Shown: positions 5,133 to 39,600 of the stretch, one piece after another | Position numbering within the stretch: position 1 is the stretch's first letter | Layout: every line of letters starts with the position of its first letter | From: Oligoflexia bacterium | GTDB taxonomy: Bacteria; Bdellovibrionota; UBA1018 | Reading direction: 5' to 3' | DNA: 64,000 nucleotides | Assembly (NCBI GenBank): GCA_023701205.1 | Contig: JAMPXJ010000007.1 | Location: 261 to 64,260, forward strand | Translations under genes and position numbers: made by a program | Notes under the pieces: model-generated | Seen by the model: only the letters and a program-made list of their open reading frames with translations | Told to the model about the DNA's origin: nothing | Database searches by the model: none

Positions 5133-5156
5133 ACTGCCCCGCGCGCAGGCAAGGCT

Positions 5157-5963: not shown

Positions 5964-5969
5964 CCGAAA

Positions 5970-7852: not shown

Positions 7853-7885
7853 CTGGAGGCGCTCCTTGATAAGGTTATCGTCAGG

Positions 7886-16626: not shown

Positions 16627-18039
<1,413 letters not shown>

Positions 18040-19451: not shown

Positions 19452-19612
19452 AAGATGAGAGGCGATTCGATCATTAAACCGCAGGTGTCAAAGTTCTCTA
19501 CACCTCTCCAAAATTGGTTTTGATGTAATCTGCCGGAACATTTAGCTTAATTTTTTCAAATGGCTGGTGCGCCTCGTGCAAATCCATTCCTCAGGAAATG
19601 AGGAAAGGAATC

Positions 19613-20560
19613 ATGAGTCGTTTTAATATTCCAATCGTGACCACCGTCCTTGGAGCTATTTGGGCCGTGAATGCCACTGCAGTAACCCTTCCTGACACTG
19701 CGGCTCCTGGATCATCGGCCTGCGAAAACGCTCGGCACGCCGGGTTGCTGTTAATCAAGACTACGGATGAGGCGGTTCGATCGGAGATCGAGTCCCTTCG
19801 TGCAAAACTGAACTCTCCAGAGCTCGACGCGGTTCGCTCGGTCCTGCCGAAGATGAGAGAAGCAGTCATAGAGTTTAAAAAAGCGGAGATCGCGACAGAT
19901 TTTACTCATTACGGGTTGAACATTAAACAGGCTGCCAAAGCCGCCGAGATCTTCTGGAAGTCACCTTGGAACACCTCTCAGTATAGCCATTATGAAACCG
20001 AGGTCGGGCGGCGTGTAATTAGCGAGCTTTTCCACGATGATTTGACTTCCGAGGACATGAAGCGGATCAAAGAAAAGTTTGATTGGGGCACCTGGCGCGA
20101 TGCCAAATCAATCCAGAGCGACCGCTGGGAAAAGGTGATTGCCATCGATCGTGAGCTCCGTTCAAAATATCACCTGCTTAAAGAGTCGGAAAAATGGCGG
20201 CAACAATACAGACGGCTCCAGGATAAAGGTTTTTCGCTCTCCCTGAATGTCGCGGACTATTTACCGGGGCCTCACCCCATTTATCAGGATGTCGTGATCG
20301 GGCTTGAGTCCGAGGATGGTCCTTCGTCAACTCACCACTATTCCATTTCAAATCCTTCCGAGGTCGTACCTCCGAATTCGAGCCCAGAAGAGCGTGCAAT
20401 GGAGGCGATATCGGCTGAGTGTCGTCAAGCCTTGAGCCAAGGCCTTCCTCAAGTTACCGCAGTGTCCAATGCCACGGCGAAGGCGCAGATGCCACGTGCG
20501 GTGGCAAATGGCGAATTCGGGGTCTCGAAGAGCGAATCCACTGCTACTGCGGGAAAGTAA
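19613..20560 (+). CDS. hypothetical secreted protein in a locally low-G+C segment
   Basis: An AGGAAAGG RBS precedes ATG(MSRFNIP...), and the N-terminus is a signal peptide. No recognisable domain. The sequence from about 19450 to 20560 is visibly AT-richer than the flanks. Confidence 0.45.
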   Translation: MSRFNIPIVTTVLGAIWAVNATAVTLPDTAAPGSSACENARHAGLLLIKTTDEAVRSEIESLRAKLNSPELDAVRSVLPKMREAVIEFKKAEIATDFTHYGLNIKQAAKAAEIFWKSPWNTSQYSHYETEVGRRVISELFHDDLTSEDMKRIKEKFDWGTWRDAKSIQSDRWEKVIAIDRELRSKYHLLKESEKWRQQYRRLQDKGFSLSLNVADYLPGPHPIYQDVVIGLESEDGPSSTHHYSISNPSEVVPPNSSPEERAMEAISAECRQALSQGLPQVTAVSNATAKAQMPRAVANGEFGVSKSESTATAGK

Positions 20561-20580: not shown

Positions 20581-22113
20581 CTACCGGGCTATCAGGCTGC
20601 TCAGCCGCGCGCCCACGCGATCCGCGGCCGCGCGCGCCTGCGTGGCATTCGCGCGCGTGGTTCGCGCCAGCACGACGAAAGGGACGAGTCCCGAGACTGT
20701 GCCGTCAGCCTCGATGCGCGGAGCATACCCCGCGAGATTGTACGACCCGCTCAACGTTCCGGTCTTGGCGCGCAGCCGGCCTTGCGCGGGAGTTCCGCGC
20801 ATGCGGTTGGCGAGGGTCCCGTCCACGCCCGCGATCGGGAGGGAGTCCCAAAGCGCGGGGAAGCCGGGACTCAGGGCCAGGCCTTCGAGCAGGAGCAGGA
20901 GGGCGCGCGGCGTGACGCGGCTTTCGTGCGAGAGGCCCGAACCGTCGCGAAGCAGGAGCTCGTCCGCGGGGATGCCGAACCCGGCTGCGAAGCTCTCGAG
21001 CGCTTCGCGCCCGGCCACGAGTAGGTCAGGTTCGGCGACGGTGGCGCGCTCGCCGACCGCCTTGAGGAACGCATCGCCCATCATGTTCAAGCTCAGCTTC
21101 ATGAAGGGTTTGAGAAGCTCCGAGAGCTGCGCTGAATGAAATATCAACGGGTCGGCCTCAGGTTGGGCCAGGCTCCGTCTCGCGGTGATACTGGGAAGCA
21201 CCGCGATGCCCGCTTCGGTGAGCGCCCTGGTGAACAAGTTCTTTTGCCAGGTGACGACATCCGAAACCGGGAGATAAAGAGTGGCAGGAGCGGAGCCGCG
21301 CGCCCAGGTGCCGCGGATGACGAGTCCCGCTTCGTTCTGGGCTACGTCAAGCGCGGTGATGGAGCCTTTGCGAAGCTCGAGCGAGACGCGGGTCGGGACG
21401 CCGTACTCCACCCAGGCGCCCAGATTTTGGCCGCGCACCACGAACGTCGCGCAGTTGATCTGGTTGTTGAAGGCTTGCGCGAGCGCTCCGTAGCAGCGGG
21501 CGCGATCACCCAAGGTCCAACCTTCGGGATAGCGCAGCGTCTTCCAGCGATGGTCGCCGGCCACCAGCTCGATCGGCCCGTGGATGGCGCGCACGCCGCG
21601 CTCCTTCAGCTGGCGGGCGAAGGTCTCGAGGCGCGAAGACACGGTTTCGCCGAACTCCTCCATTCCCCAGCTTGGATCCCCCGAGCCGATGAGCCGCACA
21701 CCCGTGATCGCGCCCGGGGAGGTATCGGGGAGCCACTGCCATTCCAGCCGGGTTTCGAAGCGGAACTCGGGCCCGAGCCGATCCAGCGCCGCGCCGGCGG
21801 TGAATAGCTTGGAGTTCGAGGCCGGCTTGAAGGAAACATCGGAATTGCGCGTGTAGGGCTCGGGTCCCTCGAGTGCCACGCCAAAAAAAACGTCTCGGGT
21901 TCCGGGCCGGTCCAGCGCCTCGTCCCAGGTGCGGTCCGTGCGGATTCCCCCGAAATGCCGGTAAAGGTCGAGCTCAAGCGTTTCTGTCGAGGCCGGAATC
22001 GAATCGTTGGAGCCGGCGGAAAGATCCAACGCGGCTTGTGCGGCGGAGGGGGTAAGCAGGAAGAGTGGTCCTGCCGCGAATGCCGCGGCCAGAGCGCGTC
22101 CAAAGGTGTTCAC
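20581..22113 (-). CDS. dacB: D-alanyl-D-alanine carboxypeptidase/endopeptidase, PBP4 (S13) family
   Basis: Active-site motifs SNSKLFTAGAAL (SxxK), GSGDPS and KTGTLSGSYNLAGY (KTG). The start was set to GTG(VNTFGRALAAAF...), which gives a proper signal peptide; the 569-aa ORF has an implausible 59-aa leader. Confidence 0.75.
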   Translation of the reverse strand: MNTFGRALAAAFAAGPLFLLTPSAAQAALDLSAGSNDSIPASTETLELDLYRHFGGIRTDRTWDEALDRPGTRDVFFGVALEGPEPYTRNSDVSFKPASNSKLFTAGAALDRLGPEFRFETRLEWQWLPDTSPGAITGVRLIGSGDPSWGMEEFGETVSSRLETFARQLKERGVRAIHGPIELVAGDHRWKTLRYPEGWTLGDRARCYGALAQAFNNQINCATFVVRGQNLGAWVEYGVPTRVSLELRKGSITALDVAQNEAGLVIRGTWARGSAPATLYLPVSDVVTWQKNLFTRALTEAGIAVLPSITARRSLAQPEADPLIFHSAQLSELLKPFMKLSLNMMGDAFLKAVGERATVAEPDLLVAGREALESFAAGFGIPADELLLRDGSGLSHESRVTPRALLLLLEGLALSPGFPALWDSLPIAGVDGTLANRMRGTPAQGRLRAKTGTLSGSYNLAGYAPRIEADGTVSGLVPFVVLARTTRANATQARAAADRVGARLSSLIAR

Positions 22114-22192
22114 CCGATATCTATAAACGAGCGGCACCCTGCGGTCAAAGCCGCAGTTGACTCCGCTCAGTCGGGGCTGTAACGCCTTGACT

Positions 22193-23422
22193 ATGGTGCG
22201 CGCGATCATACATGCCAGCGAGCTTCTGACGGGTGCGGGTATCCGCAAAAAGGATGGACGCAAGGTTCTCGAAAAGGATCTGGGGCGCATTCCTGACGGC
22301 GCGCTGGTTTACAGCACGCGGAAGCAGGACGGCAAGGAGATCCCCGATCGAATCGAATGGGTCGGACCCACTGCAGAGCTGCCCAGGCGCTATGCCCGCG
22401 CGCGCAAGCAGGACCTGCGCGGGGTGCGCGCGCTGATTCCCGGAATGGTGGACTGCCATACGCATCTGGTGTTCGCCGGGGATCGTTCCGACGAGTTCGC
22501 GCTTCGGTGCGGCGGCGCGAGCTACGAGGAGATCGCGGCGCGGGGCGGAGGGATCGTCTCGACGATGCGGGCGACGCGCGAGGCTTCTCCCGCGCTCCTG
22601 GAGCGGCTCGGCCGGGAGCGCCTCAAGGAGATGGCGGCCTACGGCGTGCGCACGATCGAGATTAAGAGCGGGTATGGGCTTTCGGTCGAGTCGGAGCTCA
22701 AGCTCCTCGAAGTGATCCAGCGCCTGAAGCGCGCGGCACCCGGCGTGACGGTGAGTTCGACTTTTCTCGGGGCGCACGCGTTCCCGCCGGATCGCTCGCG
22801 CGAGGAGTATCTTCGCGACGTGATCGAAGTGATGCTTCCGGAGGTCGCGCGCAGGAAGCTCGCTGACAGCTGTGATGTCTTCATCGATCCCGGTTACTTC
22901 ACGGTCGAGGAGGGCCGCGCCATCCTGGCACGGGCGGCGAAGCTCGGGCTCAGGATCAAGCTGCATGCCGACGAGCTTGCGGATACCGGTTCGGCCGGGC
23001 TCGCGGCGGAGCTGGGCGCGCTTTCCGCCGACCATCTCCTGAAAATTTCGGACGCCGGGATCGCGGCGCTGGCCGCTTCCAGAACTGTCGCGGTCCTGCT
23101 TCCCGGCACTGCCTTTTACCTCAAAGCGGCCCAGGCTCCCGCGCGCAAGCTGCTTTCAGCCGGCGCGGCCGTGGCGCTCTCGACGGATTTCAACCCGGGC
23201 ACGAGCATGTGCCTTTCGCTCCCGGCGGTAATGACGATCGCCGCGCTTTATCTCGGGATGACCCGCGCGGAGATCTTCGCGGGCGTGACTTACAACGGCG
23301 CGAAGGCGCTCGGCCTCGAGAAGCGCAAGGGTACGCTCGAGGCGGGGCGGGACGCGGATTTCGCCGTGCTGCCCTTCAGCCGCTTCGAGGAAGCCTATTA
23401 CCGCTTCGCCTGGAGTCCCTGA
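22193..23422 (+). CDS. hutI: imidazolonepropionase
   Basis: Motifs PGMVDCHTHLVFAGDRSDEF and SYEEIAARGGGIVSTMRATREAS, in an amidohydrolase fold of consistent length. Confidence 0.8.
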   Translation: MVRAIIHASELLTGAGIRKKDGRKVLEKDLGRIPDGALVYSTRKQDGKEIPDRIEWVGPTAELPRRYARARKQDLRGVRALIPGMVDCHTHLVFAGDRSDEFALRCGGASYEEIAARGGGIVSTMRATREASPALLERLGRERLKEMAAYGVRTIEIKSGYGLSVESELKLLEVIQRLKRAAPGVTVSSTFLGAHAFPPDRSREEYLRDVIEVMLPEVARRKLADSCDVFIDPGYFTVEEGRAILARAAKLGLRIKLHADELADTGSAGLAAELGALSADHLLKISDAGIAALAASRTVAVLLPGTAFYLKAAQAPARKLLSAGAAVALSTDFNPGTSMCLSLPAVMTIAALYLGMTRAEIFAGVTYNGAKALGLEKRKGTLEAGRDADFAVLPFSRFEEAYYRFAWSP

Positions 23423-26997: not shown

Positions 26998-27276
26998 ATG
27001 CTGCGCGCCCTGAAGTTCGGTGGCGGCTCCTGGGGTCTCGCGCTCGTTTCGGTCTTTCTGCCGCTTCTGCATTTCGTTCTGGTGCCTGCATTTCTGATCG
27101 CCGGACCGCTCGTGGCGTTCTTCGTATTCAACCAGGAGTCGCTGGTTCTCGGAGGGAAGGGAAAGTGCCCGCATTGCGGCGGGGATTTTTCCATCCGCAG
27201 GGGCGCGCCGCGATTTCCGATCAGCGATCTTTGCACCCGATGTCAGCGGACGGTGCTGGTGAGGGCGGGCGATTAA
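26998..27276 (+). CDS. small membrane protein with a C-terminal zinc ribbon
   Basis: 92 aa (or 124 aa from TTG at 26904). Two TM helices, then CPHCGG...CTRCQ. Confidence 0.35.
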   Translation: MLRALKFGGGSWGLALVSVFLPLLHFVLVPAFLIAGPLVAFFVFNQESLVLGGKGKCPHCGGDFSIRRGAPRFPISDLCTRCQRTVLVRAGD

Positions 27277-28985
27277 CGCTGTTGCGCGCCCAAATCCTCG
27301 GAGCCGACTTCGGCTTCTTCCGCCGGACCTCCGAACTGATTGCGTCGCATCGCCTCCTCGTAAACAGAGCGCGGGCTTCGCTCCGCGAGCCAACGGGTCA
27401 TGCCGAGGACCGCCTGAACCAGGTCGGGGTCACGAAAAACGAGAATCTGCTCGTTGTTCGTCTGCGCCGCCTGACTGAAGTTGAATGATGTACCTAAGAT
27501 CACGTAGGGTCCGGTCGCCAGCACCTTGTGGTGAATTTTGGCCGTGATGGCGTGGCTGGTGCCGTCGATCTTCACGTGATGGTTATTGTATTCCGGCGGG
27601 GCGATCCGGATCTGCGGCCGGAGCGCATCGAGCTGGGCGGGGGAGAGCTCCTGATGCCAGGCGTTCTGGGCATCTTCCTCGTACGTCTTCTTCTTCTTTG
27701 AAAGTTTCACCTGCTTCATCCCGGACATGAGGAGGAACTGGCTCCACGGCTGCATGGCGAAGGGCGTGTCGCCCACCGAGAGGAAGTCGAAGCTCTTCTG
27801 GCGCGAATGTTCCCGCAGGGCGCGCTCGCGCAGAGCGGTGGCCACCTCTTCCGAGGAGTAGGCGAATTGCAGCAGCCGGACGGGTCCTTGCGAGCTCTTG
27901 ATGAAGTGCGCGATGAGGTTCTGGTTGATGTTGCGGTAACCACCTCCGGGCGCGAAGGTGATGATGAGCGAGTGCTCGGGATAGGCTTCGAGCGTCTCGG
28001 GTGGAACGCCAGGCCCCGTCACCTGGAAGGACCCGGTCGTCGGATAGCTCGCGCCGCGGAACAGGAAGGCGGGATCCAGGGTCTTCGTCAGCTCATGCTG
28101 GACGAGATTGGCCAGGAGCCAGGAGCGCATTGTCAGGACGTGGTTGGCGTTCGGGACGGATTCGGGGGGCCGCTTTTGCGGCGGCAGCGCCTTGAGATCC
28201 CCTTCGGGGCCGAGGCAGGATTGGGTGAGGTTTCCGGAGGAAAACAGCACGCGGGCCTTCTCGGGGTCTTCCCAGTCGATCGCGGCGAGCTTCTGATGGT
28301 TGAGGCTCACGCTGTTGACCGGAGTCACCGCCACCCCGCCGGACACCAGGCGGTCTCGCACGCGCGCGACCTCGGGACGCAGCGCGACCACGTTCTTGTC
28401 GATGCCGACGCGCACCGAGACGCCGGCGGCCGCTTTCCTGACGAGATCTTCAGCGACCTCTTCAAGATCGAAGTCGAAGACGTTGAGGATGATCTGGCGC
28501 TCGGCCTGCTCGAGGAAATCGCGCCAGACCTGCACGAGATCGGACTCACGGACCAGGGATTTACCGAGGTAATAAGGGTGCGAAGCGTGGAATTTGAGCT
28601 CCGAGTACCCCGGCTGGCCCCGGGGCGGAATGAGCCGAAGGTGCTTGGTCGGATCCGGGTTTTGCGCGGATTCGGCCGCCACGGCCTTGAGGAGTTCTTC
28701 GCGGGGGGAGTCGATTCGCGCGGGTTCGTTTTGCAGAAGCTCGATAAGTCGGGACTCGACATTGGCCTTGCTGAGACGCTTCTGCACCTTCGGATCGTCC
28801 GAGCGCAGCACCTCGCGGCTTCTCCTGAAGATTCTCGGATAGTCGGGTCCCTGGAGCTCGGCGGAGCGGTCCAGCGAACCGGGTTGCCGTTGCGCCCCCT
28901 TGTGCGAAGGGCTGGAGCAGCCCGCCGTCGCGAGCGCCAGGTTCAGAAACGCGATCAAGATCCAGCGCGGAGTGCTTGAGCTCAT
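27273..28985 (-). CDS. phospholipase D-superfamily lipoprotein (two HKD-type motifs)
   Basis: Lipobox LATAGC|SS. Motif 1 is NHQKLAAID...SSGN (HxKxxxxD...GSxN). Motif 2 is IHHKVLATG...GTSFNFS. Confidence 0.7.
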   Translation of the reverse strand: MSSSTPRWILIAFLNLALATAGCSSPSHKGAQRQPGSLDRSAELQGPDYPRIFRRSREVLRSDDPKVQKRLSKANVESRLIELLQNEPARIDSPREELLKAVAAESAQNPDPTKHLRLIPPRGQPGYSELKFHASHPYYLGKSLVRESDLVQVWRDFLEQAERQIILNVFDFDLEEVAEDLVRKAAAGVSVRVGIDKNVVALRPEVARVRDRLVSGGVAVTPVNSVSLNHQKLAAIDWEDPEKARVLFSSGNLTQSCLGPEGDLKALPPQKRPPESVPNANHVLTMRSWLLANLVQHELTKTLDPAFLFRGASYPTTGSFQVTGPGVPPETLEAYPEHSLIITFAPGGGYRNINQNLIAHFIKSSQGPVRLLQFAYSSEEVATALRERALREHSRQKSFDFLSVGDTPFAMQPWSQFLLMSGMKQVKLSKKKKTYEEDAQNAWHQELSPAQLDALRPQIRIAPPEYNNHHVKIDGTSHAITAKIHHKVLATGPYVILGTSFNFSQAAQTNNEQILVFRDPDLVQAVLGMTRWLAERSPRSVYEEAMRRNQFGGPAEEAEVGSEDLGAQQR

Positions 28986-29038
28986 GGAGGTCCCCCGGGC
29001 TCTTTTCGGAATTCCGGCGGGAAACTGGAATTTGTCTA

Positions 29039-31570
29039 ATGGTTTTGGCGGGTTTTCCCGAAACGAGAACAGTGAGAGGCCTGATTCCCGAGTTCAGGAT
29101 ATTTTCCGGCTTGGTTCCGATTCTCTTTTCGCTGCCGGCACACGCCTGGCCGCCGACTTTCGGGCCGGAGTTCACGTTCACGAATCCCGAGATCCTCGAG
29201 GTCGGTAACCGCAATCCCACGAACGCGAAATCGGAGATCAACTCCGCGAAGCTCGAGCAGTGGCGCGGGGTCCTGGTCGAGCGCTGCAAGCAGCTCGGCT
29301 GCGAGGTTCGAAGGACGAGTGACAAGCACGGCGCAGCGCACCGAGTTTCATTTCCGGATGGCTGGTATTTCAACATCTCCCTCGACGCCGCCGTGCTCGA
29401 GGTTCAGACGAAGCCCGGAACGCTCGAGGATTTCCGCGCGCGGAAGGAACTCATTCAGAAGGAGATCTTCGAGACAGCGCGCTCCATCGGCATCGAGCCG
29501 CACAAGCGCGCCGGCCAAGGTCATATCCACATCGATGTGGATGAGGCTTTCGGCCAGGACAGCCGGCTGCTGCGCAATTTCTTCGTCGACTACTCGAACC
29601 ATCCGGAGCTGGCCTGGGGCGCGCTCGGCAACCATCTCGGCAACAGCCCGCCCGTCGCCGCGCTCAAGCCGGAGCAGCGCAAAGCGCTGATCCATGCGCT
29701 TCAGGAGTTTGACGCCCACCCGGGCACGCATCGGGAGTTCGGCGATCTGATCGACCGAAACGTCTATACGCACGGAACGGTCGCGGAATGGGGCTTCCCG
29801 CGGCATTATCAGGCCCTGCGCTTCGCCTGGAATCTCAACACGATCGAGATGCGCGGGTTCCGTCCCCAGCGTTCCGCGGATGAGTTCGTGAAGGAGCTCG
29901 AGCTGATCCAGGGTCGGATCGAGCATCTCAAGAAGGTTGAAGGAGCGATTCCGTTCGTCAATCCTCCCACGCACGAGCTTCCGCTCAAGGAAGTCGTCAC
30001 GCGCTTCTACGGCTATGTGACCGAGTCGGGGCTCGACTGGGAGACGTATAAGACCCTGCTGCCGCCGGAACTCGTCGGGATCCAGCCGGACACGAAGCGG
30101 TTTCCGAAACCCAAGCTGCGCAACGAGGCTTTTGACGAGGTTCGCGATGCGAGCGGGGGCCTTCGCGAACGCTATCGCGGCGTCCATGAGGTTTACGCCG
30201 GAATGTCTGTGATAGAGCGGCGGGCCTTCGAGGCGGCCACGTTCAAGGAGTCCGCCGGGAACCGGAGCCTCCTTCCCTTGCCACGCCTCCTGAGCGTGGA
30301 GGAGCGCGACGAGATCAAGAAGGGCGTGCAGCAGCGCGCTCGGGCGCTTCAGCTTCTCGCCGAGGATGTCGCGAAGGGGAATTACGAACGCATTGAGGCA
30401 TTCGGGCTTCCGCGGTCCATCGTGAAGGCAGCGCTGGCGCGGAGCGGGGAGACCGAAGCGGTGAAGGCGCTCATGCCCGAAGCGATCGCATTTCCTTACG
30501 GGCCGGACCTGATCCGTGGCCCGGACGGAAGATACCTCGTGATCGAGGACAATACGGGCTTCGTCGGTGGCATCGGCGACTCGTCCTACTCGCGGGAGCA
30601 GCTCCTGCGTCATCAGCCGGCGTACCGGCAGTTTCTCGAGCAGGATCGCGGCAAATCGGCGGTCGAGATCCTTGTGGAACATCTCCGGAAGCTGGCCGTG
30701 CCGCCGGACGGAGAGCTGGTCATGGCAGTGCACCCCGATATGAAGGTGAACAATGCGACCCTGTCTTCACAGCTGGAGAAGCTGGGTGTCCGGGTGATCT
30801 ATGGTGCCAAGAGTGAGCTGAAAGTCGATGCCGGGGGCGTGTTCCTGAACATTGATGGTGTTAAGCGCCGCGTGGGCCTGGTTCTCCCGAAAAACTATGC
30901 CATCGGTGGTTTTGCAACCCAAACCGTTCCCGGTCTGGAAGAAGCTGCAAGAGCGGGCAAAGTGGCGCTCGGATATCAGGCGGGCCTGGAGTTCCTCGGA
31001 GACAAGGAGATCTCTCCTTATGTGGAGAAGCTGATCCGCGGCTATCTTGGGGAAGCGCCGATCCTGGGCACTCCCGAAACCCATTCGCTCAAGCTGGGGC
31101 AGGGAGCCGATCCGGCGCTCGTCGAGGCGCTCACCGAGAATCGCGAGGCATACGTGCTCAAGCAAGCCGATGGAAGGGGCGGGAGCGAAGTCTGGATCGG
31201 CAAAAAAACCTCCAGCTCCGAGTGGCGCTCGTTGCTCAAGAAGGCGGTGAAGGAGCCGGACAGCTTCATCGTCCAGAAGTTCACGCCCCTCTCGGAACTC
31301 GAGGGGCATATCGTGGACATGCGGCCGGTGACCTACGTGAGCCGGTTCGGCGCCGACGTCGCGGATCATTTCTGGGCGCGCGCGCTCCCGGTGGATGGCA
31401 ACGGCAAGGTGAACGTCTCCATCGATGGCAAGGTCACGGCGGTCTTCGTGACGGACCCGAAGAAATACCCGGCGCAGCCGGAGCTGGACGTGCCTGCGGC
31501 CGCGCGCCCGGGAGGGTTCCCGGGCTCCTCTTTTTGCGCGCGGCTTTTTGAAAAGCTGTTCCGTCGTTGA
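29039..31570 (+). CDS. two-domain ligase: N-terminal glutamine-synthetase/GCS2-like amidoligase domain fused to a C-terminal circularly permuted ATP-grasp domain
   Basis: The N-terminal half contains WYFNISLDAAVLEVQTKP, AGQGHIHIDV and NTIEMRGFRP. These parallel the GS/GCS2 motifs of YbdK (LGIELEMQ, GQHVHVG, TVEVRVMD). The C-terminal half contains LVIEDNTGFVGGIGDSSYS and YVLKQADGRGGSEVWIG...IVQKF, an ATP-grasp nucleotide-binding segment placed C-terminally as in CP-ATP-grasp proteins. The ORF track starts at 28976 and would overlap the PLD gene start, so M22 (29039) is more plausible. Confidence 0.55.
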   Translation: MVLAGFPETRTVRGLIPEFRIFSGLVPILFSLPAHAWPPTFGPEFTFTNPEILEVGNRNPTNAKSEINSAKLEQWRGVLVERCKQLGCEVRRTSDKHGAAHRVSFPDGWYFNISLDAAVLEVQTKPGTLEDFRARKELIQKEIFETARSIGIEPHKRAGQGHIHIDVDEAFGQDSRLLRNFFVDYSNHPELAWGALGNHLGNSPPVAALKPEQRKALIHALQEFDAHPGTHREFGDLIDRNVYTHGTVAEWGFPRHYQALRFAWNLNTIEMRGFRPQRSADEFVKELELIQGRIEHLKKVEGAIPFVNPPTHELPLKEVVTRFYGYVTESGLDWETYKTLLPPELVGIQPDTKRFPKPKLRNEAFDEVRDASGGLRERYRGVHEVYAGMSVIERRAFEAATFKESAGNRSLLPLPRLLSVEERDEIKKGVQQRARALQLLAEDVAKGNYERIEAFGLPRSIVKAALARSGETEAVKALMPEAIAFPYGPDLIRGPDGRYLVIEDNTGFVGGIGDSSYSREQLLRHQPAYRQFLEQDRGKSAVEILVEHLRKLAVPPDGELVMAVHPDMKVNNATLSSQLEKLGVRVIYGAKSELKVDAGGVFLNIDGVKRRVGLVLPKNYAIGGFATQTVPGLEEAARAGKVALGYQAGLEFLGDKEISPYVEKLIRGYLGEAPILGTPETHSLKLGQGADPALVEALTENREAYVLKQADGRGGSEVWIGKKTSSSEWRSLLKKAVKEPDSFIVQKFTPLSELEGHIVDMRPVTYVSRFGADVADHFWARALPVDGNGKVNVSIDGKVTAVFVTDPKKYPAQPELDVPAAARPGGFPGSSFCARLFEKLFRR

Positions 31571-31840
31571 CGGTTACGCCGCCGCGAAGAGCCCTCCCTC
31601 AGCGCTTCGAATATACGCTCGAGCTCGCCTGGAAAGTCGCGAAAAGGCGATCTCGACCTGCTCATCGAAGGCACTCCGCCACTTCCCGGCGCCCGGATCG
31701 AGGCCCTGAGGGATGCGCTCGAGGAAAGCGACTTTCCGTTCAAAGTCGATCTGGTGAGGATGGAAGAGCTGGTCCCGTCCTACCGTGACCAGATTCTTTC
31801 GGAACGAAAGCTTTTTTGGGAGAGCCAGTCCGGCGGCTGA
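31571..31840 (+). pseudogene. MNT/MntA-type minimal nucleotidyltransferase (HepT-MntA antitoxin family) remnant, no start codon
   Basis: The open frame begins immediately after the TGA of the ligase gene, in the same frame: RLRRREELSPSASNIRSSSPGKSRKGDLDLLIEG...FKVDLV...LSERKLFWE. It has the GS...D[LI]DLL[IV]E and KVDLV signatures but no Met or plausible start. No HEPN partner follows. Confidence 0.45.
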
Positions 31841-31862
31841 GGGCCAAGCCCACCGGCACGGA

Positions 31863-33056
31863 TTAATGCTTATTCCAATCGTTTTCGGGCATGACCCGTT
31901 TCATGAATTCATCGAAGAGGGGCACGGTGAAGGCCGTATCGCCATGATTCGGGCTCCAAATCATCCCCTTACCGATCAGGCTGCTCCGAGTCGGACCTAA
32001 TGAGCTGACGATCCGGTTAAGCTTCTCCGCAATATCTCCCGAACGGTGAGGTCCCGCCCCGAGTGCGGCCATCGCGCGGAGGTATTTCTTCTCTGAAGGG
32101 GTAAGTCGGTCAAAACGAACGCGAAAAAAGCTCTCGTCAAGAGCTGCGACAGCCTGGGTGGAAGCCGCGTGGACGTCAGCAACGGTGATCGGGCTTCTGG
32201 TCGCAACACTCCAGGAATGCTTTCCCCACTCCTGCAAGAAATAAGGATAGCCGCGAGTCTGCTCTACGATGGCCGCCACTGCTGCAGGCTCAAATTCCAC
32301 ACCTAGGTCAGACGCCGGCTTTTCAAGCGCCAGACGCGCGGCGGCGATGGGGAGAGGGCCTATTTCCGGATAGTCAAAGAGTCGTTCGGCATAGGACTTA
32401 GCATTACCAGCGCGGCCGCGAAGTTGTGGCAGCCCGGCTCCGACAATGCAAACCGGTAGTTTTTGCTGAGCACATCGATGAAGTGCAGTAATGAGAGCAG
32501 CAAGCTCCGGCTCCGCTACATACTGAAGTTCATCGATGAATATCACGAGAGCTGTCCCGGCCGCTTTCGCGGCGCGACCGACCTCCTCAAGGAGCATAGC
32601 TAGATCGAGTTCAAGGTCGCCGTTATCGGCAAATCCTGGTTCAGGATCGTAGTCGAGTCCAACTTCGATATCTTGGAATTTTACCTTGAGAGCCCTGACA
32701 AAACCGGCGAGACCGCGAAGCGCTCTTACCGCGACATCCTTGGCCTTATCGATCCTGCTAAGCCGCAAGAGCGCCAACCGCAACTGCGGCGCCAATATAG
32801 CGGGAAGCGAGCGACCCTCGGGAGCCTCAATTCGAACCGTATGTATTCCCGCGGCCTCTGCATCATTCCGCATCTGATCGAGTAAAACCGTCTTACCTAC
32901 ACCTCGTAGTCCAACCATGACGACGCTTTTCGCCGGATTGCCCAAGCGAATACGTTCGAGCGCGATCCGAACCGAACCGCGCAGCTGATCGCGACCAGCC
33001 AGTTCAGGAGGAGGGGTGCCCGCGCCAGGTGAATAGGGGTTTTGTATTGGATCCAT
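31863..33056 (-). CDS. archaeal-type AAA ATPase (Arch_ATPase/DUF234-like P-loop NTPase)
   Basis: Walker A GLRGVGKTVLLDQ and Walker B ALVIFIDELQYV, with a C-terminal winged-helix-like tail. The gene sits in a lower-G+C stretch. Confidence 0.6.
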   Translation of the reverse strand: MDPIQNPYSPGAGTPPPELAGRDQLRGSVRIALERIRLGNPAKSVVMVGLRGVGKTVLLDQMRNDAEAAGIHTVRIEAPEGRSLPAILAPQLRLALLRLSRIDKAKDVAVRALRGLAGFVRALKVKFQDIEVGLDYDPEPGFADNGDLELDLAMLLEEVGRAAKAAGTALVIFIDELQYVAEPELAALITALHRCAQQKLPVCIVGAGLPQLRGRAGNAKSYAERLFDYPEIGPLPIAAARLALEKPASDLGVEFEPAAVAAIVEQTRGYPYFLQEWGKHSWSVATRSPITVADVHAASTQAVAALDESFFRVRFDRLTPSEKKYLRAMAALGAGPHRSGDIAEKLNRIVSSLGPTRSSLIGKGMIWSPNHGDTAFTVPLFDEFMKRVMPENDWNKH

Positions 33057-33253
33057 TTGATGAACTATATAGCGATATTAGGCAGATTACAACATATAGA
33101 TAAGTTTTGTAATTTAACTATAAATGAACATTTAAATAGGCAAGACATGGAAACTACTAAAGTAAATCAACAGCAGCACTTTGAGTGCTCGCAGTGTGAG
33201 CCACAGTAGCGGGCGGCCTTACTCTCTCCTGGAAAAAGCCCGATAAGCAATCG
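33057..33253. promoter_or_regulatory. AT-rich divergent intergenic region (probable promoters for the AAA ATPase and the secreted 792-aa protein)
   Basis: About 200 nt of strikingly AT-rich sequence, ttgtaatttaactataaatgaacatttaaatagg, between two divergent starts. Confidence 0.35.
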
Positions 33254-35632
33254 ATGAGATCAAGCATGCGGGCCCTCCTACTCGCAGGGATGTTGACGTT
33301 TCCCGGCGTGCACCGCGCGCAAGCCGGGCTGCCGGTCCCTCCAGCCCCGGGCATTCCCGTCCTCAACCGGTGCAAAACAAGCTTCGAGGAGCTTCTCAAG
33401 GCGCCCGTATTTCAAAGATTCGGCCTGGGAGAGAATTTTTCCGCTGCTCAGGACAAAATCCTGATCGCCCGGGGAGAGGTACTTGCGCTCACGGAGAGAA
33501 GACTGGAACGCAATCCTACGCATTCCAGGCTCCAAATCCATGAGCATCGCGTGAGTCCATTGGTCCTGCTGGATGCCAAAACAGAGGCGCGGATCTCTGA
33601 CTGGCATTCGATCCTGGAAAAGGTGGACCAAAAGCTGGGCGAGCTCGGCGACAGCCTCGTGGATAAGAAGGCGAACTTTCCTAACTTCGGGCTCTCATCG
33701 GACTCGAAAACAGTCGCTCTGCAGGTCCTCACCGGGTCGGGCCCTCGCGTGGTCCTTTTTGATTATGGAAAAGGCGAAGTCCGACAGGTCTTCAGGCCGC
33801 TTCTGAATCGGCAGACGCCCGCAGTCCGCTTACAGCATGATCGTTATATCCTGCTGACTGACCGAGCCGAAGGTGGAAGCGTCAATCTGATCCTGGATAC
33901 CCAGACCGGAAGCCAAAAAATCCTGGAGGGCTCGCGATACGCGGACATTTCAGTTTCACCCGATGGAGAAAGACTCCTCGCGCTGATTGGAGATACGCTC
34001 TGGTATGGCAGATTGGACCAGCTCGGAAGCAGGGAAGTCATCGAAGATGCCGCTTCGCTTAAGTCCCTGAAAGGGAAGCTCGTCTCTCAATCGCCTGACC
34101 TGAGCCAACTCGTGGTGAATCATGGAGAGCAGACCTGGGACCCGGCAACCCAGACCTCGTTCCACCTGCCTGTCCTGAAGGTGGCCACTTGGAAGGGGAA
34201 CTCCTATCGGGAACAATTCCTTCCCGGTCTCGAAAATTTGTCCCTGAAATTCAAGGAGGCCAAAAACGCGGGCATGGAGCTCCTGCGGGCGGACGTTCAG
34301 GGAAAGCAGACACCGGATGGCCATTACCTGGCGGTGCGCTTCCCGATGCGAGCCAAAACAGAAACCCTCCCTAAGAGGGGTTTTCGCCAAGAGGTCGTGG
34401 CAGAGTATGACATTGTGGGCCTTTGGGACCTCCGAAAGCCGGGAAGCCCACCTGCTTTCACGGCCTCCCGGGATCTCAACTCACCAGGAAACTACGAGCC
34501 CACTCTGGACTCCGCCATTGCCTCGGCTCAGGCGGGCGAGACAGTGCTGCGAAAGGTCGCTTTTGAGCTTTCAGACGATGGCAAGCTCACTCTGGTTCGC
34601 GTCACTTCTGCTGATTCAAATCCAGCGTCCCCGCAGCGAGCTTTTCCGAAGCTGGATTTTGCGGTCTCAGAAATTCGCCTCGTCGGTAACGGGCAGGTCG
34701 AGCGGTCGCTCGATGCGCAAAGCTTTCCGCTCAAAACACTCGGTGAGGGGGATAATCCGGGAGCGCCTCTGCTTTGGGGATCTATCGACGTCAGTGCCGA
34801 CGGCAAGCGTGTGGTTGCTCATACTCGCAACGAAGGGATTCTTTACTTCGAGCGGGAGCGAGGCGGCCTTTCCACGGCGGGCCCTGATCCGATCCATCCG
34901 GCTTCCGGTGTAACAGAAAAAACCGGGAAAGGTCAGTTCGCGGAGATCCTGAAGAAGGTTCCCGCCTCTTTCAAGCAAACACACCTGACTCATGAGGATC
35001 GCGAAAAGATCCAGGCGATATTTTCGATGGGTAATCTCTCTCGCAGCGATCAGCTTCGCAATGCGTTCGAAGCCTACCGTGAGGCGAGATTGCGGGGCCT
35101 TGGGCGCAAGGAACGGGAGCAGGTGCTCAAGATGCTCAAGGAGCTCCGGGTCAAGAAAAGTCCCTCTGGCTCGGGCTACATGAGGGCCAATGCTTCGGGA
35201 ATCGTCATGCCCGAGGAGCTTCATGGCACCGCCGCGCACTACGGTGTGCTGTCCCATGAGCTGGAGCACCTGATTCAGATCGTGGAAGCAACCCCTTCGG
35301 CCAGTCCGGCTGAATTACGGCGGCTCTACGGGCACCTCACGCAGGAGCACGCGCAGGTCAATCTCTGGGAGATCGGCGCCTCGAAAGGCGAATGGGAGTT
35401 CCTGAGCGTGGTCCCCGCGTCGATCAGGAGCGAGGCGGAACAGTCCGCGCAGCAAAACCTCGGTGATCATGGGCTTCGCCTGGCCGTCACCGAGATTCTC
35501 CAGTCAGCGGGTGGCTCCCTGCAGGATCATATCGCCCGGAAGATCAATCTCGGGATCCTGCGGATGCCCTTGGACCGGGATCTTACTTCTTTAGAGTCGA
35601 GTGTTCCGTCGGGGCGGGTGATTTCGCAATAA
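33254..35632 (+). CDS. large secreted protein with PD40/TolB-like beta-propeller repeats and a C-terminal HExxH motif
   Basis: Signal peptide MRSSMRALLLAGMLTFPGVHRAQA. PD40-like repeats: ISVSPDGERLLAL and DVSADGKRVVAHT. The C-terminal segment YGVLSHELEHLIQIVE follows. Confidence 0.5.
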   Translation: MRSSMRALLLAGMLTFPGVHRAQAGLPVPPAPGIPVLNRCKTSFEELLKAPVFQRFGLGENFSAAQDKILIARGEVLALTERRLERNPTHSRLQIHEHRVSPLVLLDAKTEARISDWHSILEKVDQKLGELGDSLVDKKANFPNFGLSSDSKTVALQVLTGSGPRVVLFDYGKGEVRQVFRPLLNRQTPAVRLQHDRYILLTDRAEGGSVNLILDTQTGSQKILEGSRYADISVSPDGERLLALIGDTLWYGRLDQLGSREVIEDAASLKSLKGKLVSQSPDLSQLVVNHGEQTWDPATQTSFHLPVLKVATWKGNSYREQFLPGLENLSLKFKEAKNAGMELLRADVQGKQTPDGHYLAVRFPMRAKTETLPKRGFRQEVVAEYDIVGLWDLRKPGSPPAFTASRDLNSPGNYEPTLDSAIASAQAGETVLRKVAFELSDDGKLTLVRVTSADSNPASPQRAFPKLDFAVSEIRLVGNGQVERSLDAQSFPLKTLGEGDNPGAPLLWGSIDVSADGKRVVAHTRNEGILYFERERGGLSTAGPDPIHPASGVTEKTGKGQFAEILKKVPASFKQTHLTHEDREKIQAIFSMGNLSRSDQLRNAFEAYREARLRGLGRKEREQVLKMLKELRVKKSPSGSGYMRANASGIVMPEELHGTAAHYGVLSHELEHLIQIVEATPSASPAELRRLYGHLTQEHAQVNLWEIGASKGEWEFLSVVPASIRSEAEQSAQQNLGDHGLRLAVTEILQSAGGSLQDHIARKINLGILRMPLDRDLTSLESSVPSGRVISQ

Positions 35633-35658
35633 CCCGCAAGCTCAACGTCGGTCTGCCG

Positions 35659-36651
35659 CTACGGCGCCCACCCATGCAGGATCTTCATGTAGTTCCCGCG
35701 CGTGAACGCATCCGGATCCGGGCAGCGCCGCAGGCTCATGCTCCCGCGCAGCTGCTCGAGCGACTCGTACTCATGGCTGGTAAGCCACTGCGCGATCTCG
35801 GCAGCGAGCTTGGTGAAGACCGAAGGCCCCTGCTGCAGGAGCGCCGAGACGACCTGCACGCCCGTCGCGCCGGTCATGAGCGCCTTGATCGCGTCCTGCG
35901 AGGTGTGCACGCCGCCTGAGACGGCGAGCGAACCACGGAAGTGCGGCTCCAGGATCGCCAGGCAGCGCAGGCGCAGCGGCAGCTCCGAGGAATCCGAGAG
36001 CTTGAGCGTCGGCGCGGCCTGCAGCGCCTCGGTGTCGATGTCCGGCTGGTAGAGCCGGTTGAAGAGCACGAGCCCGTCGGCGCCCGCGGCGGCGAGCTGC
36101 TGGGCGAAATTCGGGAGAGACGAGAAGAACGGCGAGAGCTTCACGGCGATCGGGATCCTCACCATCGCGCGGATCGCCTTGAGGATCTCGAGGTAGCGCC
36201 CCTCGACCTGCGCGGCGGTTTCGTTCGGATGGGTGGGGAGCTCGTAGAAGTTGAGCTCGAGCGCATCCGCGCCGGCTTCCTCGATGAGCTTCGAGTAGCG
36301 TTCCCAGCCGCCGTGGGTGATGCCGTTGAGCGAGCCGATGACGGGAATGCCCGTGGCCTTTTTCGCCTGGCGCAGGTGCTCGAGATAGCGTTCCGTATCG
36401 AAAGCGAAATCCTGGAACGGGAAGAGCCCTTCGGACGCTTCGGCATACGCACCCGCGTGCGCCGTCGCGTGACGGAAGTAGGCATTTTCCTCCATCGCGA
36501 TCTGCTCTTCGAAAAGCGAGCGCAGCACGATCGCGGAGGCGCCGGCGTCCTCGAGTCGGCGGATGCCATCGATCCGGTCCGTGAAGGGCGAGGCGCCGGA
36601 GAGGAGCGGGTTTTTCAGTTCCAGGCCGAGATAGCGCGTGGTGAGCTTCAC
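35659..36651 (-). CDS. dihydroorotate-dehydrogenase-like (class 1 TIM-barrel flavoprotein) protein
   Basis: PyrD-like segments GIPVIGSLNGITHGGWERY, GADALELNF and GADGLVLFNR. It overlaps the PFOR stop by 4 nt. Confidence 0.65.
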   Translation of the reverse strand: MKLTTRYLGLELKNPLLSGASPFTDRIDGIRRLEDAGASAIVLRSLFEEQIAMEENAYFRHATAHAGAYAEASEGLFPFQDFAFDTERYLEHLRQAKKATGIPVIGSLNGITHGGWERYSKLIEEAGADALELNFYELPTHPNETAAQVEGRYLEILKAIRAMVRIPIAVKLSPFFSSLPNFAQQLAAAGADGLVLFNRLYQPDIDTEALQAAPTLKLSDSSELPLRLRCLAILEPHFRGSLAVSGGVHTSQDAIKALMTGATGVQVVSALLQQGPSVFTKLAAEIAQWLTSHEYESLEQLRGSMSLRRCPDPDAFTRGNYMKILHGWAP

Positions 36652-39600
36652 TTGGTTTCCCCTTCGGACGAGGTGCCGCCGTGCAGCTTGGCCAGGTGCT
36701 GGTAGAACTCGTAACGCTGGTTCACGAGCTGCTGCGCGGAAGCCTGCAGTTTCTGAGCCTGCTCCGGTGCCGAGGATTCCAGCATCCGGTAGCGGATCTC
36801 GTTCTCGATGTAACGCTTGAGGGGGACCTTCGGGGCCGTGGAGTCGAGCCGGAGCGCCGGTTCCGAAGTGCCCACGCGCCGGGGGTCGAAGCGGAAGAGC
36901 GGCCAGTGGCCCGAGTCAACCGCGAGCTTCTGCTGCTCCAGACCCTTCTGTAACCCGTAACCGTGGGCGATGCAGTGGGAGTAGGCGATGATAATCGAGG
37001 TGCCCGGGAAGCTCTCGGCTTCGGTGAACGCCTTGACCGTCTGGATATCCTTGGCGCCGAAGGCCACGCGCGCGACATAGGCATTGCCATAGCTCATGGC
37101 AATGAGGCCCAGGTCCTTCTTCGGCGTGACCTTGCCGGCGACCGCGAACTTGGCCGAGGCCCCCATCGGGGTCGACTTCGAGGCCTGGCCGCCGGTGTTG
37201 GAATAAACCTCGGTGTCCATGACCAGGATGTTGACCTTGCGGCCCATCGCCAGCACGTGGTCCAGGCCGCCGTAGCCGATGTCGTAGGCCCAGCCGTCGC
37301 CGCCCACGATCCAGACGCTCTTCTGGACGAGGTAATCCGCCAGGAGCTCGAGCCGCCGCGCGGCCGGATCCCGGTGGGAGACGAGCTTCTTGCGCAGCTC
37401 GAGCACGCGCTCGCGCTGCTGCTGAATCCCGGTCTCGGTCGACTGATCGGCCGAAAGGAGCTGGGTCACGAGCGTATCGCCGAGCGCACCCGAGAGCTTC
37501 TTGACGAGCTCCTGAGCCTGCTCGACGTGCTTGTCGAGCGCCACGCGCATTCCGAAGCCGTACTCGGCGTTGTCCTCGAAGAGCGAGTTCGACCAGGCCG
37601 GGCCGCGGCCCTGCGAGTTGCAGGTGTAAGGCGTCGTCGGCAGGTTCCCGCCATAGATCGAGGAGCAGCCCGTGGCGTTCGCGATGTAGAGGCGATCGCC
37701 GTAGAGCTGGGTGAGCAGCTTGATATAGGGCGTTTCGCCGCAACCCGCGCACGCGCCCGAGTATTCGAAGAGGGGCTCGAGGAACTGCGTGGTCTTGGTG
37801 TCGCCCGTCATGACCGAGCGGTCGCGATAAGGCAGCTTGAGGAAGAACTCGTAGTTCTCGCGTTCCACCTCGCGGATCGGCTCCTGGGGCGCGAGGTTGA
37901 TGGCCTTGTCCTTGGGATTGGCCTTGTCCTTCACCGGGCAGACCTGGATGCAGACGCCGCAGCCGGTGCAGTCCTCGGGCGCGACCTGGAGCGAGTACTT
38001 CAGGCCGGGATGCTCGTTGGACTTGAAATCCACGGCTTTGAAGGACGCCGGCGCTTCGGAAAGGTGCGCAGGCTCGTAGATGGCGGGACGGATCGCCGCG
38101 TGCGGGCAGACAAACGCGCATTTATTGCACTGGATGCAGATCTTCTCGTTCCAGACCGGGATCTCCAGACCGACGTTGCGCTTCTCCCAGCGGGTCGTGC
38201 CCATGGGCCAGGTGCCGTCGACGGGGAAGGCGCTGACCGGCAGCAGATCGCCCTGGCCGGCCATCATGACTGAGGTGACGCGCTTGACGAATTCGGGCGC
38301 GTGCTCGGAGACGATCGGGGGCTTGGTGCGGGTGGAATCGGCTTTCGCGGGGACGCGCACCTCATGCAGCGCCGCGAGCGTCTGGTCGACCGCTTCGAAG
38401 TTGCGTGCGATCACGTCGGCGCCCTTCTTGGCGTAGGTTTTCTCGATGGCCTTCTTGATCTGCTTGATGGCGTCCTCGCGCGGGAGGACGCCCGAGATGG
38501 CGAAGAAGCAGGTCTGCATGATCGTGTTGATCCGGCCGCCCATTCCCGTCGCGCGCGCGACGGAGTAGGCGTCGATGACGTAGACCTTGAGCTTTTTCGC
38601 GATGATCTGCTGCTGGTTCTCCCGCGAGAGCCGGTCCCAGACCTGATCTTTGGCGTAGGCGGAGTTCAGCAGCAGGACCGCGCCCTCGGCGGCGGGGCCG
38701 AGCACGTCATATTTGTCGAGGAAGTCCCATTGATGGCAGGCGACGAAGTTCGCCCGGGTCACGAGATAGGAGGACTGGATGGGGTTCGGGCCGAAGCGCA
38801 GGTGCGAGATCGTGATCGCGCCGGATTTCTTCGAGTCGTAAACGAAGTAGCCTTGCGCGAAGTTCTCCGTCTCCTCGCCGATGATCTTGATGGAGTTCTT
38901 GTTGGCGCCCACCGTGCCGTCGGCGCCCAGGCCGAAGAACACGCAGCGGGCGACCTCGCGCGGCTCGATGTCGAAGTTCGTGTCAAACGGCAGCGAAGTG
39001 CCCGAGACGTCGTCGTGGATGCCCACGGTGAAATGGTTCTTGGGATGCTCCTTGCGGAGCTCGTCAAAGACCGCCTTGACCATGGCCGGGGTGAATTCCT
39101 TGGAGGACAGGCCGTAGCGCCCGCCGATGACCCGCGGGAATTTCGCGAGAGACCCTTCGGCCTGCGCTTCGCTGAGCCCCGTGATCACATCCTGATAGAG
39201 CGGCTCGCCCAGGGCGCCGGGCTCTTTGGTGCGATCCAGCACCGCGAGCGCGCGGACGCTCTTCGGGAGCGCGGCGAGCAGGTGCCGCGTGGAGAACGGG
39301 CGGAAAAGGCGAACCTTGAGCACGCCGACTTTCTCGCCTTTCGCGGTGAGCGCATTCACCGTCTCGTGCGCGGTCTCGGCGCCCGAGCCCATGAGCACGA
39401 CCACGCGCTCGGCTTCGGGATGACCGGCGTAATCGAACGGCCGGTACTTACGGCCGGTGAGCTTCGCGAGCTTTTCGAAGGCTTCCTCCACCCGCGCCGG
39501 GATCGAATCGTAATACGGGTTGCACGCCTCGCGCGCCTGGAAGAACACGTCCGGATTCTGGGCCGTGCCCCGGATCCGGGGCTGGTCGGGCGTGAGGGCG

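Follow-up and report, generated by a model that had tools for sequence, protein, structure and literature searches.

The contig JAMPXJ010000007.1 of an uncultured Oligoflexia bacterium (GCA_023701205.1) contains, within the 64,000 nucleotides (nt) analysed here (the window), a stretch from about 31.5 to 35.6 kb that differs in composition from its flanks and encodes a degraded nucleotidyltransferase, an AAA+ ATPase and a secreted protein of 792 amino acids (aa). The question raised by this locus is whether these genes entered the genome together as one island or have separate histories. The evidence makes it probable that three mutually independent pieces form a mosaic here, between an ATP-grasp gene and a PFOR/DHOD-like gene pair, and that the ATPase gene with its own upstream DNA forms a self-sufficient transferred cassette. 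The first piece would be a pseudogene of an MNT-type antitoxin with host-like G+C, which has lost its HEPN partner. The second would be a promoter-bearing ATPase cassette of 1,264 bp that arrived by horizontal transfer or relocation and has its closest copies in other Bdellovibrionota-type metagenome-assembled genomes (MAGs). The third would be a gene whose secreted product combines a beta-propeller with a C-terminal HExxH...E...E domain.

Boundaries and distribution of the ATPase cassette

The features of the cassette and of the spacer next to it are the following:

31861..33124, minus strand: self-contained ATPase cassette of 1,264 bp, comprising the open reading frame (ORF) and 67-68 nt of 5' control DNA, shared across unrelated contexts; G+C 0.546
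31863..33056, minus strand: intact ORF of the 397-aa AAA+ ATPase, in which AAA_16 is combined with a helical lid and, at the C-terminus, a winged-helix-like domain
32889..32912, minus strand: Walker A motif GLRGVGKT, residues 49-56, checked in the translation and invariant in 26 homologues
32529..32549, minus strand: Walker B motif LVIFIDE, residues 170-176, checked in the translation, with F173, D175 and E176 invariant in 26 homologues
33057..33124, minus strand: AT-rich, dyad-symmetric 5' element, G+C 0.235, from a promoter scan and an alignment of 58 loci
33125..33253, no strand: spacer between the cassette and the 792-aa gene, G+C 0.465, not shared with the Oligoflexia locus L012 described next and presumably holding the promoter of the 792-aa gene

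The limits of this unit emerge from comparison with a second Oligoflexia MAG (JAMPXZ010000084.1, locus L012), whose sole blastn match to the whole window spans 31861-33124, with 89.3% identity at the nucleotide level and 96% at the protein level, and whose flanks are unrelated to those of the window. An all-against-all blastn comparison of 83 loci gave the same picture, in that the similarity between independent pairs covers 64-69 nt before the ATG and ends 0-4 nt past the stop codon. Between the window and L012 copies of the ATPase gene dS is 0.45 and dN/dS 0.049, which indicates that both copies are under strong purifying selection and did not arise from each other by a very recent duplication.

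The ATPase is represented by more than 8000 homologue clusters, with 120 listed at 76-86% identity, and relatives with at least 71% identity occur in at least 573 species genomes of GTDB. The carriers among these include Oligoflexia, Bacteriovoracaceae, Burkholderiales, Pseudomonas, Acidobacteriota and Verrucomicrobiota, as well as Gemmatimonadota, Planctomycetota, Nitrospirales, Chloroflexota, Rickettsiales and Myxococcota. The gene is also carried by 121 plasmids, conjugative ones included, and by 8 viral contigs of IMG/VR; a phage GenBank set yielded one weak match, and E. coli had no DNA match to the cassette. Nearest neighbours of the ATPase often cross phyla at 86-92% identity (e.g. 88% for a Planctomycetota/Burkholderiales pair and 92% for Asaia and a gammaproteobacterium), and pairs among the 83 loci have a median identity of 72%; by comparison, the PFOR and DHOD-like proteins of this organism reach at most 69% and 68% identity, respectively, to their best metagenome relatives. 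The window ATPase itself groups with other Bdellovibrionota-type copies (96% and 84% identity). The G+C of the ORF is lower than that of the flanks in 65 of 77 loci, and it partly tracks the G+C of the host (r=0.70, slope 0.56).

The surroundings of the gene range from an island with integrase, HNH and methylase genes in Pseudomonas to metabolic genes on an Azoarcus plasmid and a conjugative plasmid of Legionella. In GCA_021733565.1 (JAKFZD010000169.1; positions 5774-8298 of locus L009) an 83%-identical copy, accompanied by a 191-aa ORF with no Pfam match, is placed between ftsW and murD; the dcw cell-wall cluster there is otherwise canonical, which makes this a striking case of how freely the ATPase unit lands. 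In Vibrio sp. HDW18 (NZ_CP049914.1; positions 3764-5384 of locus L094) a 64%-identical copy is found between two 129-nt VCR attC repeats of a superintegron-like array, in an orientation opposite to that of most of its neighbours and with an AT-rich upstream region of its own. Clustering of the neighbouring ORFs recovered no conserved partner gene in the 83 loci, its yield being antisense shadow ORFs of the ATPase together with paralogous families, namely histidine kinases, ABC ATPases and a UvrD-like helicase in 3 loci. In the latter, which come from unrelated MAGs (L022, L023 at 6115-8298, and L065), the helicase gene begins within ~40 nt of the ATPase stop codon and the N-terminus of its product reads M(D/N)F(R/L)I(S/A)DTF; an association in 3 of the 83 loci is too rare for a partner, and has the flavour of a defence island. 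As a further observation, a 4.3-kb Logan contig (SRR23907158_29750; L001/L002), the one other assembly of this locus that look-ups of the exact proteins returned, corresponds to approximately 32973-37290 of the window, has the same arrangement of the 792-aa and DHOD-like genes and breaks 83 nt inside the ATPase ORF, as expected if the ATPase unit has more than one context in that sample.

As a single small promoter-bearing unit the cassette is reminiscent of the sedentary cassettes of chromosomal integrons, typified by toxin-antitoxin (TA) genes, and the reverse-oriented copy between VCR attC repeats in Vibrio sp. HDW18 adds to this likeness. However, the window has neither an attC-like site nor an integron context, most copies reside in ordinary chromosomal or plasmid DNA, and the 5' dyad, as read from the alignment, is unlike the attC layout RYYYAAC...GTTRRRY. 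On the comparative evidence, the ATPase cassette is demonstrably foreign and mobile. Its donor was probably a related lineage; alternatively, the gene might be older in this lineage and have moved subsequently.

The 5' element as a candidate operator

The 5' element contains promoter-like boxes, with a -35-like TTGTAA at 33087-33092 separated by 17 nt from a -10-like TATAGT at 33064-33069, which in turn is followed after 7 nt by the ATG. Over the 58 aligned loci the distance from the -10-like box to the ATG has a median of 7 nt (range 2-16); no Shine-Dalgarno (SD) sequence is present in the window element, and an SD-like motif was seen in 1 of the 58 loci. The consensus of these loci reads TTTATAG.GA.ATTAG..A..TTAT-(loop with TTG)-TAAA.T..CTAAT.T.G.TATAA, with the ATG a few nt further on, and the triplets TTA/TTA/TAA/TAA are invariant throughout. 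The preliminary description of this DNA had pointed to a strongly AT-rich divergent promoter region of about 200 nt, and the intergenic region between the ATPase and 792-aa genes is indeed 197 nt long with a G+C of 0.386; its 33057-33124 part belongs to the cassette.

The dyad symmetry of the element is conserved, with 72% of the alignment cells pairing as against 32-45% when the register is slid. Doubly changed cells number 149, compared with 93+-9 in shuffled alignments, and none of 500 shuffles reaches 149, a control which leaves in the relatedness of the sequences. A sequence-only model built from the element has a single location of match in the window, found on both strands at 33062-33128 (44.8 and 24.7 bits), and it also matches directly upstream of the ATPase in loci outside its training, namely the Azoarcus plasmid and five viral contigs; the model found no match in 26 other loci searched (~0.4 Mb). 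Within the dyad there are 108 G:T mismatches and 70 A:C mismatches, whereas column composition predicts 116 and 80, so G:T is not favoured. An RNA hairpin was accordingly rejected as an explanation, since G:T pairs are not favoured and the element matches its own reverse complement in the sequence-only model; these properties point to a double-stranded DNA site. An attC- or dif-like reading of the dyad was also rejected, informally, from the motif layout seen in the alignment.

In the mechanism that we propose, the ATPase would bind the dyad overlapping its own promoter by means of its C-terminal winged helix, in an ATP-dependent manner, and would thereby regulate its own expression. The short distance between the -10-like box and the ATG, with no SD sequence, would result in a leaderless or SD-less mRNA, which could be expressed in almost any host.

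The ATPase protein

The predicted protein belongs to the AAA_16 family, with a score above the gathering threshold (PF13191; 64.1 bits against a cut-off of 32.6) and intact Walker A and B motifs; AAA_22 matches with 38.9 bits. A Foldseek search with its AlphaFold (AF2) model (pLDDT 77) recovered the archaeal ATPases PABY2304 (2qen) and SSO1545 (2fna) as the best hits, with a probability of 1.0 and E-values of about 1e-6 at 14-17% identity and low global TM-scores of 0.2-0.35, followed by RuvB and Cdc6/Orc1, the latter in its complex with origin DNA (2qby) at E=1.9e-5. These proteins have in common a P-loop AAA+ core, a lid and a C-terminal winged-helix-like domain in a chain of ~350-400 aa. 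The earlier designation as an archaeal-type AAA ATPase therefore fits the fold; the resemblance is structural only, the score for ATPase_2 (PF01637) being 21.7 bits and thus under its 33.2-bit cut-off. Unlike the archaeal ATPases, the present family is bacterial, extremely conserved and horizontally promiscuous.

In PADLOC-DB v2 the best match of the ATPase was to mad8 (E=2.5e-5, 22 bits), and the search assigned it to no defence system. A literature search found no description of this family, whose members are annotated everywhere merely as 'ATP-binding protein'. The protein is probably a self-regulating DNA-binding ATPase. The solitary, promoter-bearing and promiscuous lifestyle of the gene would fit best with a conflict or defence gene, or with a selfish one. 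A bolder proposal, which we advance with considerable reservation, is that the unit might represent an undescribed type of autonomous single-gene element, in which an Orc1/Cdc6-like AAA+ winged-helix ATPase is combined with its own dyad site and promoter, no ribosome-binding site and base-precise ends, is spread over at least 10 phyla while lacking its own recombinase, repeats and attC site, and maintains itself either through a one-gene defence or addiction function or through an action on DNA at the dyad.

Composition of the region and its borders

That the DNA from 31.6 to 35.6 kb is AT-richer than its surroundings had been noticed by eye, and sliding-window G+C and tetranucleotide analyses confirm the distinction from the flanks, with codon usage deviating likewise. 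In 1-kb windows G+C is 0.535-0.58 at 31.5-35 kb as against 0.61-0.66 on both flanks. Among all the 4-kb windows in the 64 kb, 31501-35500 is the foremost outlier on three measures. Its G+C is the lowest (0.570, z=-2.8), its tetranucleotide usage lies farthest from the mean of the window (z=4.1), and no other 4-kb window correlates so poorly once tetranucleotide usage is normalised for G+C (r=0.83, z=-3.8). What has to be corrected is the left edge of the low-G+C part, which lies at ~31861 and not at 31571, the DNA at 31571-31860 having a G+C of 0.617. Shorter dips in G+C are also present at 1-1500, 16-17.5 kb, 19-20.5 kb (one gene, GC3 0.56), 43.5-45 kb and 58-60 kb.

Codon usage was compared with 26 window genes, whose GC3 of 0.82+-0.04 provides a partly circular reference in that they were selected by GC3>=0.735, so that the z-scores are somewhat inflated: on this scale the ATPase gene has a GC3 of 0.548 (z=-7.0) and the 792-aa gene one of 0.660 (z=-4.1). 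A codon adaptation index (CAI) trained on the window gave z=-4.6 and z=-3.1 for the two genes, respectively.

The absence of an integrase or tRNA at the borders, remarked upon in the preliminary description, holds with a wider scope, as the entire 64-kb window contains no tRNA or tmRNA gene and no recombinase or integrase is found among the ORFs of 27273-36651 (coding for the PLD-like, ATP-grasp, remnant nucleotidyltransferase, ATPase, 792-aa and DHOD-like products). A search of the borders for repeats recovered only chance-level matches of 12-30 nt, with no meaningful direct or inverted repeats; there is no attC-like site on either strand of 31300-35800, and the region has no match to an Rfam family. 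Of the hallmarks of a classical integrase-mediated island, the deviation in composition is thus present, and an integrase at the border or a tRNA gene with direct repeats is not.

The nucleotidyltransferase remnant

To the left of the cassette lies the following feature:

31571..31860, plus strand: pseudogene of an MNT-type nucleotidyltransferase antitoxin with the Pol-beta fold, detected by profile matches and recognisable at ~31600-31840

One frame of this DNA reads ...GDLDLLIEGTPPLPGARIEALRDALEESDFPFKVDLVRMEELVPSYRDQILSERKLFWESQSGG*, and its stop codon is separated from the ATPase unit by 22 nt. The frame-1 translation matches just the C-terminal two thirds of Pol-beta-type nucleotidyltransferase profiles, covering positions 36-94 of 97 in PADLOC PDC-S09 (E=1.8e-6) and scoring 16 bits against the NCBIfam MntA model NF047752 (cut-off 60). 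Pfam Polbeta gives 16.5 bits for frame 1 alone and 19.4 bits for frames 2 and 1 joined, with a cut-off of 26.9. The N-terminal third is in another frame, requiring a frameshift near 31640; there is no in-frame start codon, and the catalytic GS motif can no longer be read in the translation. The remnant has no HEPN partner beside it, and no HEPN-like remnant was detected in 33100-33270, beyond the ATPase cassette. The alignment of 31600-31840 to the C-terminal two thirds of the MntA and Polbeta profiles is the point of likeness to the MNT-HEPN (MntA/HepT) type VII TA systems, from which the remnant differs in the frameshift, the missing GS motif, the scores below every curated cut-off and the missing HEPN gene. 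Judged from its reading frames and profile scores, 31571-31860 is a dead antitoxin gene and not a working TA module, in agreement with the decayed TA-module gene that had been suspected here. With its host-like G+C of 0.617 the remnant lies outside the compositional anomaly.

The 792-aa secreted protein

The gene on the other side of the cassette has the following features:

33254..35632, plus strand: gene for the 792-aa secreted protein, an ORF coding for a signal peptide, a low-confidence linker, a beta-propeller and an HExxH domain
33254..33325, plus strand: predicted Sec signal peptide MRSSMRALLLAGMLTFPGVHRAQA|G (…VHRAQA|G), read from the sequence, with residues 2-14 helical in the model
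33560..34858, plus strand: beta-propeller domain, residues ~103-535, with a fold match to solved propellers
34925..35551, plus strand: C-terminal helical HExxH domain, residues ~558-766, from the model and an alignment

The protein is identical to the database entry NDJ89_06070 (Oligoflexia bacterium MAG), in which it is called as 788 aa with a start at 33266. It has no match in Pfam, NCBIfam or PADLOC, and a word-indexed search returned only the protein itself. An exhaustive HMMER search of 1.84 billion representatives, on the other hand, recovered 66 remote relatives. The earlier view of a large secreted protein with no obvious homologues is thus borne out as to the signal peptide and the missing Pfam and NCBIfam matches, and is to be amended in that it is a two-domain protein which does have distant relatives. 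One of the 66 is full-length (P0122, 27% identity), four of 545-572 aa have only the N-terminal domain, and ~60 cover just residues 568-767; nearly all of the last group are 230-350 aa long, many with hydrophobic signal-like N-termini. These relatives of the C-terminal domain (P0123-P0186) often have an N-terminal Cys and a Cys-containing C-terminal tail, and no Pfam model exists for them.

In the AlphaFold (AF2) model (pLDDT 71) residues 103-535 are rich in beta-strands and residues 558-766 are helical with a pLDDT of 90-98. The C-terminal domain contains a HELEH motif encoded at 35255-35269 (H668, E669, H672), located on a helix comprising residues 660-679. These three residues together with E706 and E713 are invariant in 26 aligned sequences, giving an HExxH followed by E.GAM.AEWEF, with the invariant glutamates 34 and 41 positions past the second His. 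The combination of an HExxH with a downstream third ligand that defines zincins is thereby present, one of the two glutamates being the putative zinc ligand. Sub-threshold Pfam matches of the domain were to Zn_peptidase_2, DUF6782 and DUF2268, all putative zinc peptidase families. The invariant HExxH plus Glu, and the location of the motif, in a confidently modelled domain, within a long helix preceded by a small beta-sheet, are shared with the gluzincin-type metallopeptidases, from which it differs in matching no Pfam or NCBIfam family at threshold and no solved structure by sequence. The N-terminal propeller for its part resembles the gating propellers of DPP-IV, prolyl oligopeptidase and tricorn, which provide an architectural analogue, although these known propeller-gated peptidases are serine enzymes and not zincins. 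The protein is most likely a secreted zinc metallopeptidase, whose propeller would gate, select or target its substrates. Predatory Bdellovibrionota are expected to have a repertoire of secreted hydrolases, which a zinc peptidase would suit.

The evidence for a foreign origin of the 792-aa gene is confined to its codon usage, and it may instead be a lineage-typical, fast-evolving gene. The possibility that it is native and lineage-specific, its lower GC3 reflecting weak codon selection or local mutation bias, with the ATPase unit as the only foreign piece, has to be taken seriously even if we consider it the less probable one. It accords with the host-like values at the other codon positions (GC1 0.65, GC2 0.43; GC3 alone is lower), with the restriction of named relatives of the HExxH domain to a Bdellovibrionia MAG and a 'Deltaproteobacteria' MAG, with the lack of any homologue on plasmids and with the similarly low GC3 of another secreted-looking orphan in the window (19598-20560). 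It is less easily reconciled with the size of the deviation from the 26 reference genes (z=-4.1 for GC3 and z=-3.1 for CAI), with the fact that GC3 is low throughout the gene (0.58-0.75 per 100 codons), and with the sole full-length relative, P0122, which lies among housekeeping genes in a genome of 48% G+C, in a different context.

One island or several pieces

A single event, in which one genomic island brought in the nucleotidyltransferase, ATPase and 792-aa genes together, is the reading suggested by the contiguous low-G+C block that is the top compositional outlier of the window and fits exactly between two host-like units; within it both large genes deviate in codon usage and diverge from one AT-rich intergenic region. 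We regard it as unlikely, because the Oligoflexia locus L012 has the ATPase unit (31861-33124) alone in common with the window, the two genes differ in GC3 (0.55 and 0.66) and the remnant has the G+C of the host, no relative of the 792-aa gene and no conserved neighbour turned up at any of the 83 ATPase loci, and neither an integrase nor a tRNA gene, repeat or attC site was found. Horizontal acquisition, as proposed in the preliminary description, is supported for the foreign and mobile ATPase, and is not supported for one coherent island.

Another possibility is that the ATPase and its AT-rich inverted-repeat element constitute a minimal initiator-origin pair, comparable to archaeal orc1/cdc6 genes next to ORB-flanked origins, which would serve the replication of an excised circle or of the carrier replicon. 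The presence of Cdc6/Orc1 on origin DNA among the fold matches, a weak match to the orc1/cdc6 model TIGR02928, an AT-rich dyad beside the gene in every locus examined and the frequent carriage on plasmids are all in line with such a role. We nevertheless think it improbable: the dyad is only ~60 nt long and overlaps promoter-like boxes directly before the ATG, for which an operator is the better explanation; the majority of copies are single and located on chromosomes; neither a circular form nor a helicase partner was observed; and the TIGR02928 match scores 22.3 bits against a cut-off of 181.3 and covers only residues 16-69. Finally, a vertically inherited, anciently resident and slowly evolving housekeeping-like ATPase with a functionally low G+C, to which the very strong purifying selection, the Bdellovibrionota-type nearest relatives and the partial tracking of host G+C might be adduced, is highly improbable in the face of flanks that differ even between two Oligoflexia MAGs, nearest neighbours that cross phyla at 86-92% identity, carriage by plasmids, viral contigs and an integron, a copy inside the dcw cluster, and a conservation between phyla exceeding that of PFOR among the best relatives of this organism.

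The preferred reading, a mosaic with a self-sufficient ATPase cassette that is regulated at its dyad and lies next to a peptidase gene, has several points weighing against it. The -10-like TATAA box abuts the ATG in some homologues of 61-62% identity, which is hard to square with the same promoter combined with a leaderless start, and the -35 to -10 spacing of the consensus is just ~15 nt. The grouping of the ATPase with the 96%- and 84%-identical Bdellovibrionota-type copies makes an old residence followed by relocation a possible alternative to recent import; the searches for a recombinase, repeats and an attC site brought to light nothing that could account for the movement of the unit; and no close relative without the block was found, so that insertion at this locus lacks direct demonstration. 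As for the 792-aa protein, its C-terminal domain was not assigned to a solved peptidase fold, profile searches having returned no PDB sequence and searches with the whole model being dominated by the propeller, and the two named relatives of this domain, both from Bdellovibrionota-type MAGs, make the gene look lineage-typical and not foreign.

Flanking genes

The region had been thought to be bounded by core genes on both sides. This holds on the right, where a PFOR gene and then the DHOD-like gene form a pair conserved in ~35 distant loci, none of which shares anything of the window beyond the DHOD-like gene; the right border of the region thus coincides with the end of a conserved module. 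The nearest relatives of the DHOD-like protein, in metagenome contigs, are 68% and <=58% identical. On the left the claim is unproven: the 864-aa protein encoded there, with a circularly permuted ATP-grasp domain in its C-terminal half and a host-like GC3, has no relative in 185,579 species genomes by a pattern scan.

Some further observations concern this left flank. On the plus strand at 31506-31535, within the last 20 codons of the 864-aa ORF, there is a terminator-like hairpin, GCCCGGGAGGGTTCCCGGGC, with a T-run behind it; the C-terminal tail of the ORF may be read-through into a terminator. At its other end the listed TTG start of this ORF overlaps the start of the divergent PLD-like gene by 10 nt (28976-28985), and the true start is probably further downstream. 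The PLD-like gene (27273-28985, minus strand) has weak matches to DrmC of the DISARM system (NF038319, 26.7 bits with a cut-off of 133; PADLOC DrmC, E~1e-4); by score its product is not DrmC, and the left flank may itself be accessory.

A second compositional outlier among the window genes is 19598-20560 (plus strand), with a G+C of 0.52 and a GC3 of 0.56 (z=-6.7), coding for a protein of 320 aa with a signal-like N-terminus and no Pfam match. It has a beta-eliminating lyase gene (16651-18039) on one side and a peptidase S13 gene (20581-22290) on the other, and may be another small acquired or orphan gene for a secreted protein.

Significance of the ATPase cassette and the HExxH family

Considered as a genomic island, the region is an ordinary small accessory patch in the genome of an uncultured Oligoflexia bacterium, and the ATPase cassette is its interesting part. 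The ATPase ranks, among the single genes encountered here, with those exchanged most widely and most recently, occurring in hundreds of species as well as on plasmids, on prophage-like contigs and in an integron, and it travels always with the same 67-nt dyad-symmetric control region and never with a partner gene. This makes the unit a clear-cut candidate, open to experimental testing, for a conflict or defence system consisting of one gene or else for a selfish module that binds DNA, and potentially a natural example of a host-independent expression cassette. The C-terminal domain of the 792-aa protein, in turn, defines an unclassified HExxH...E...E family with ~60 representative clusters, composed mostly of small, apparently secreted proteins, which could join the existing peptidase classifications.

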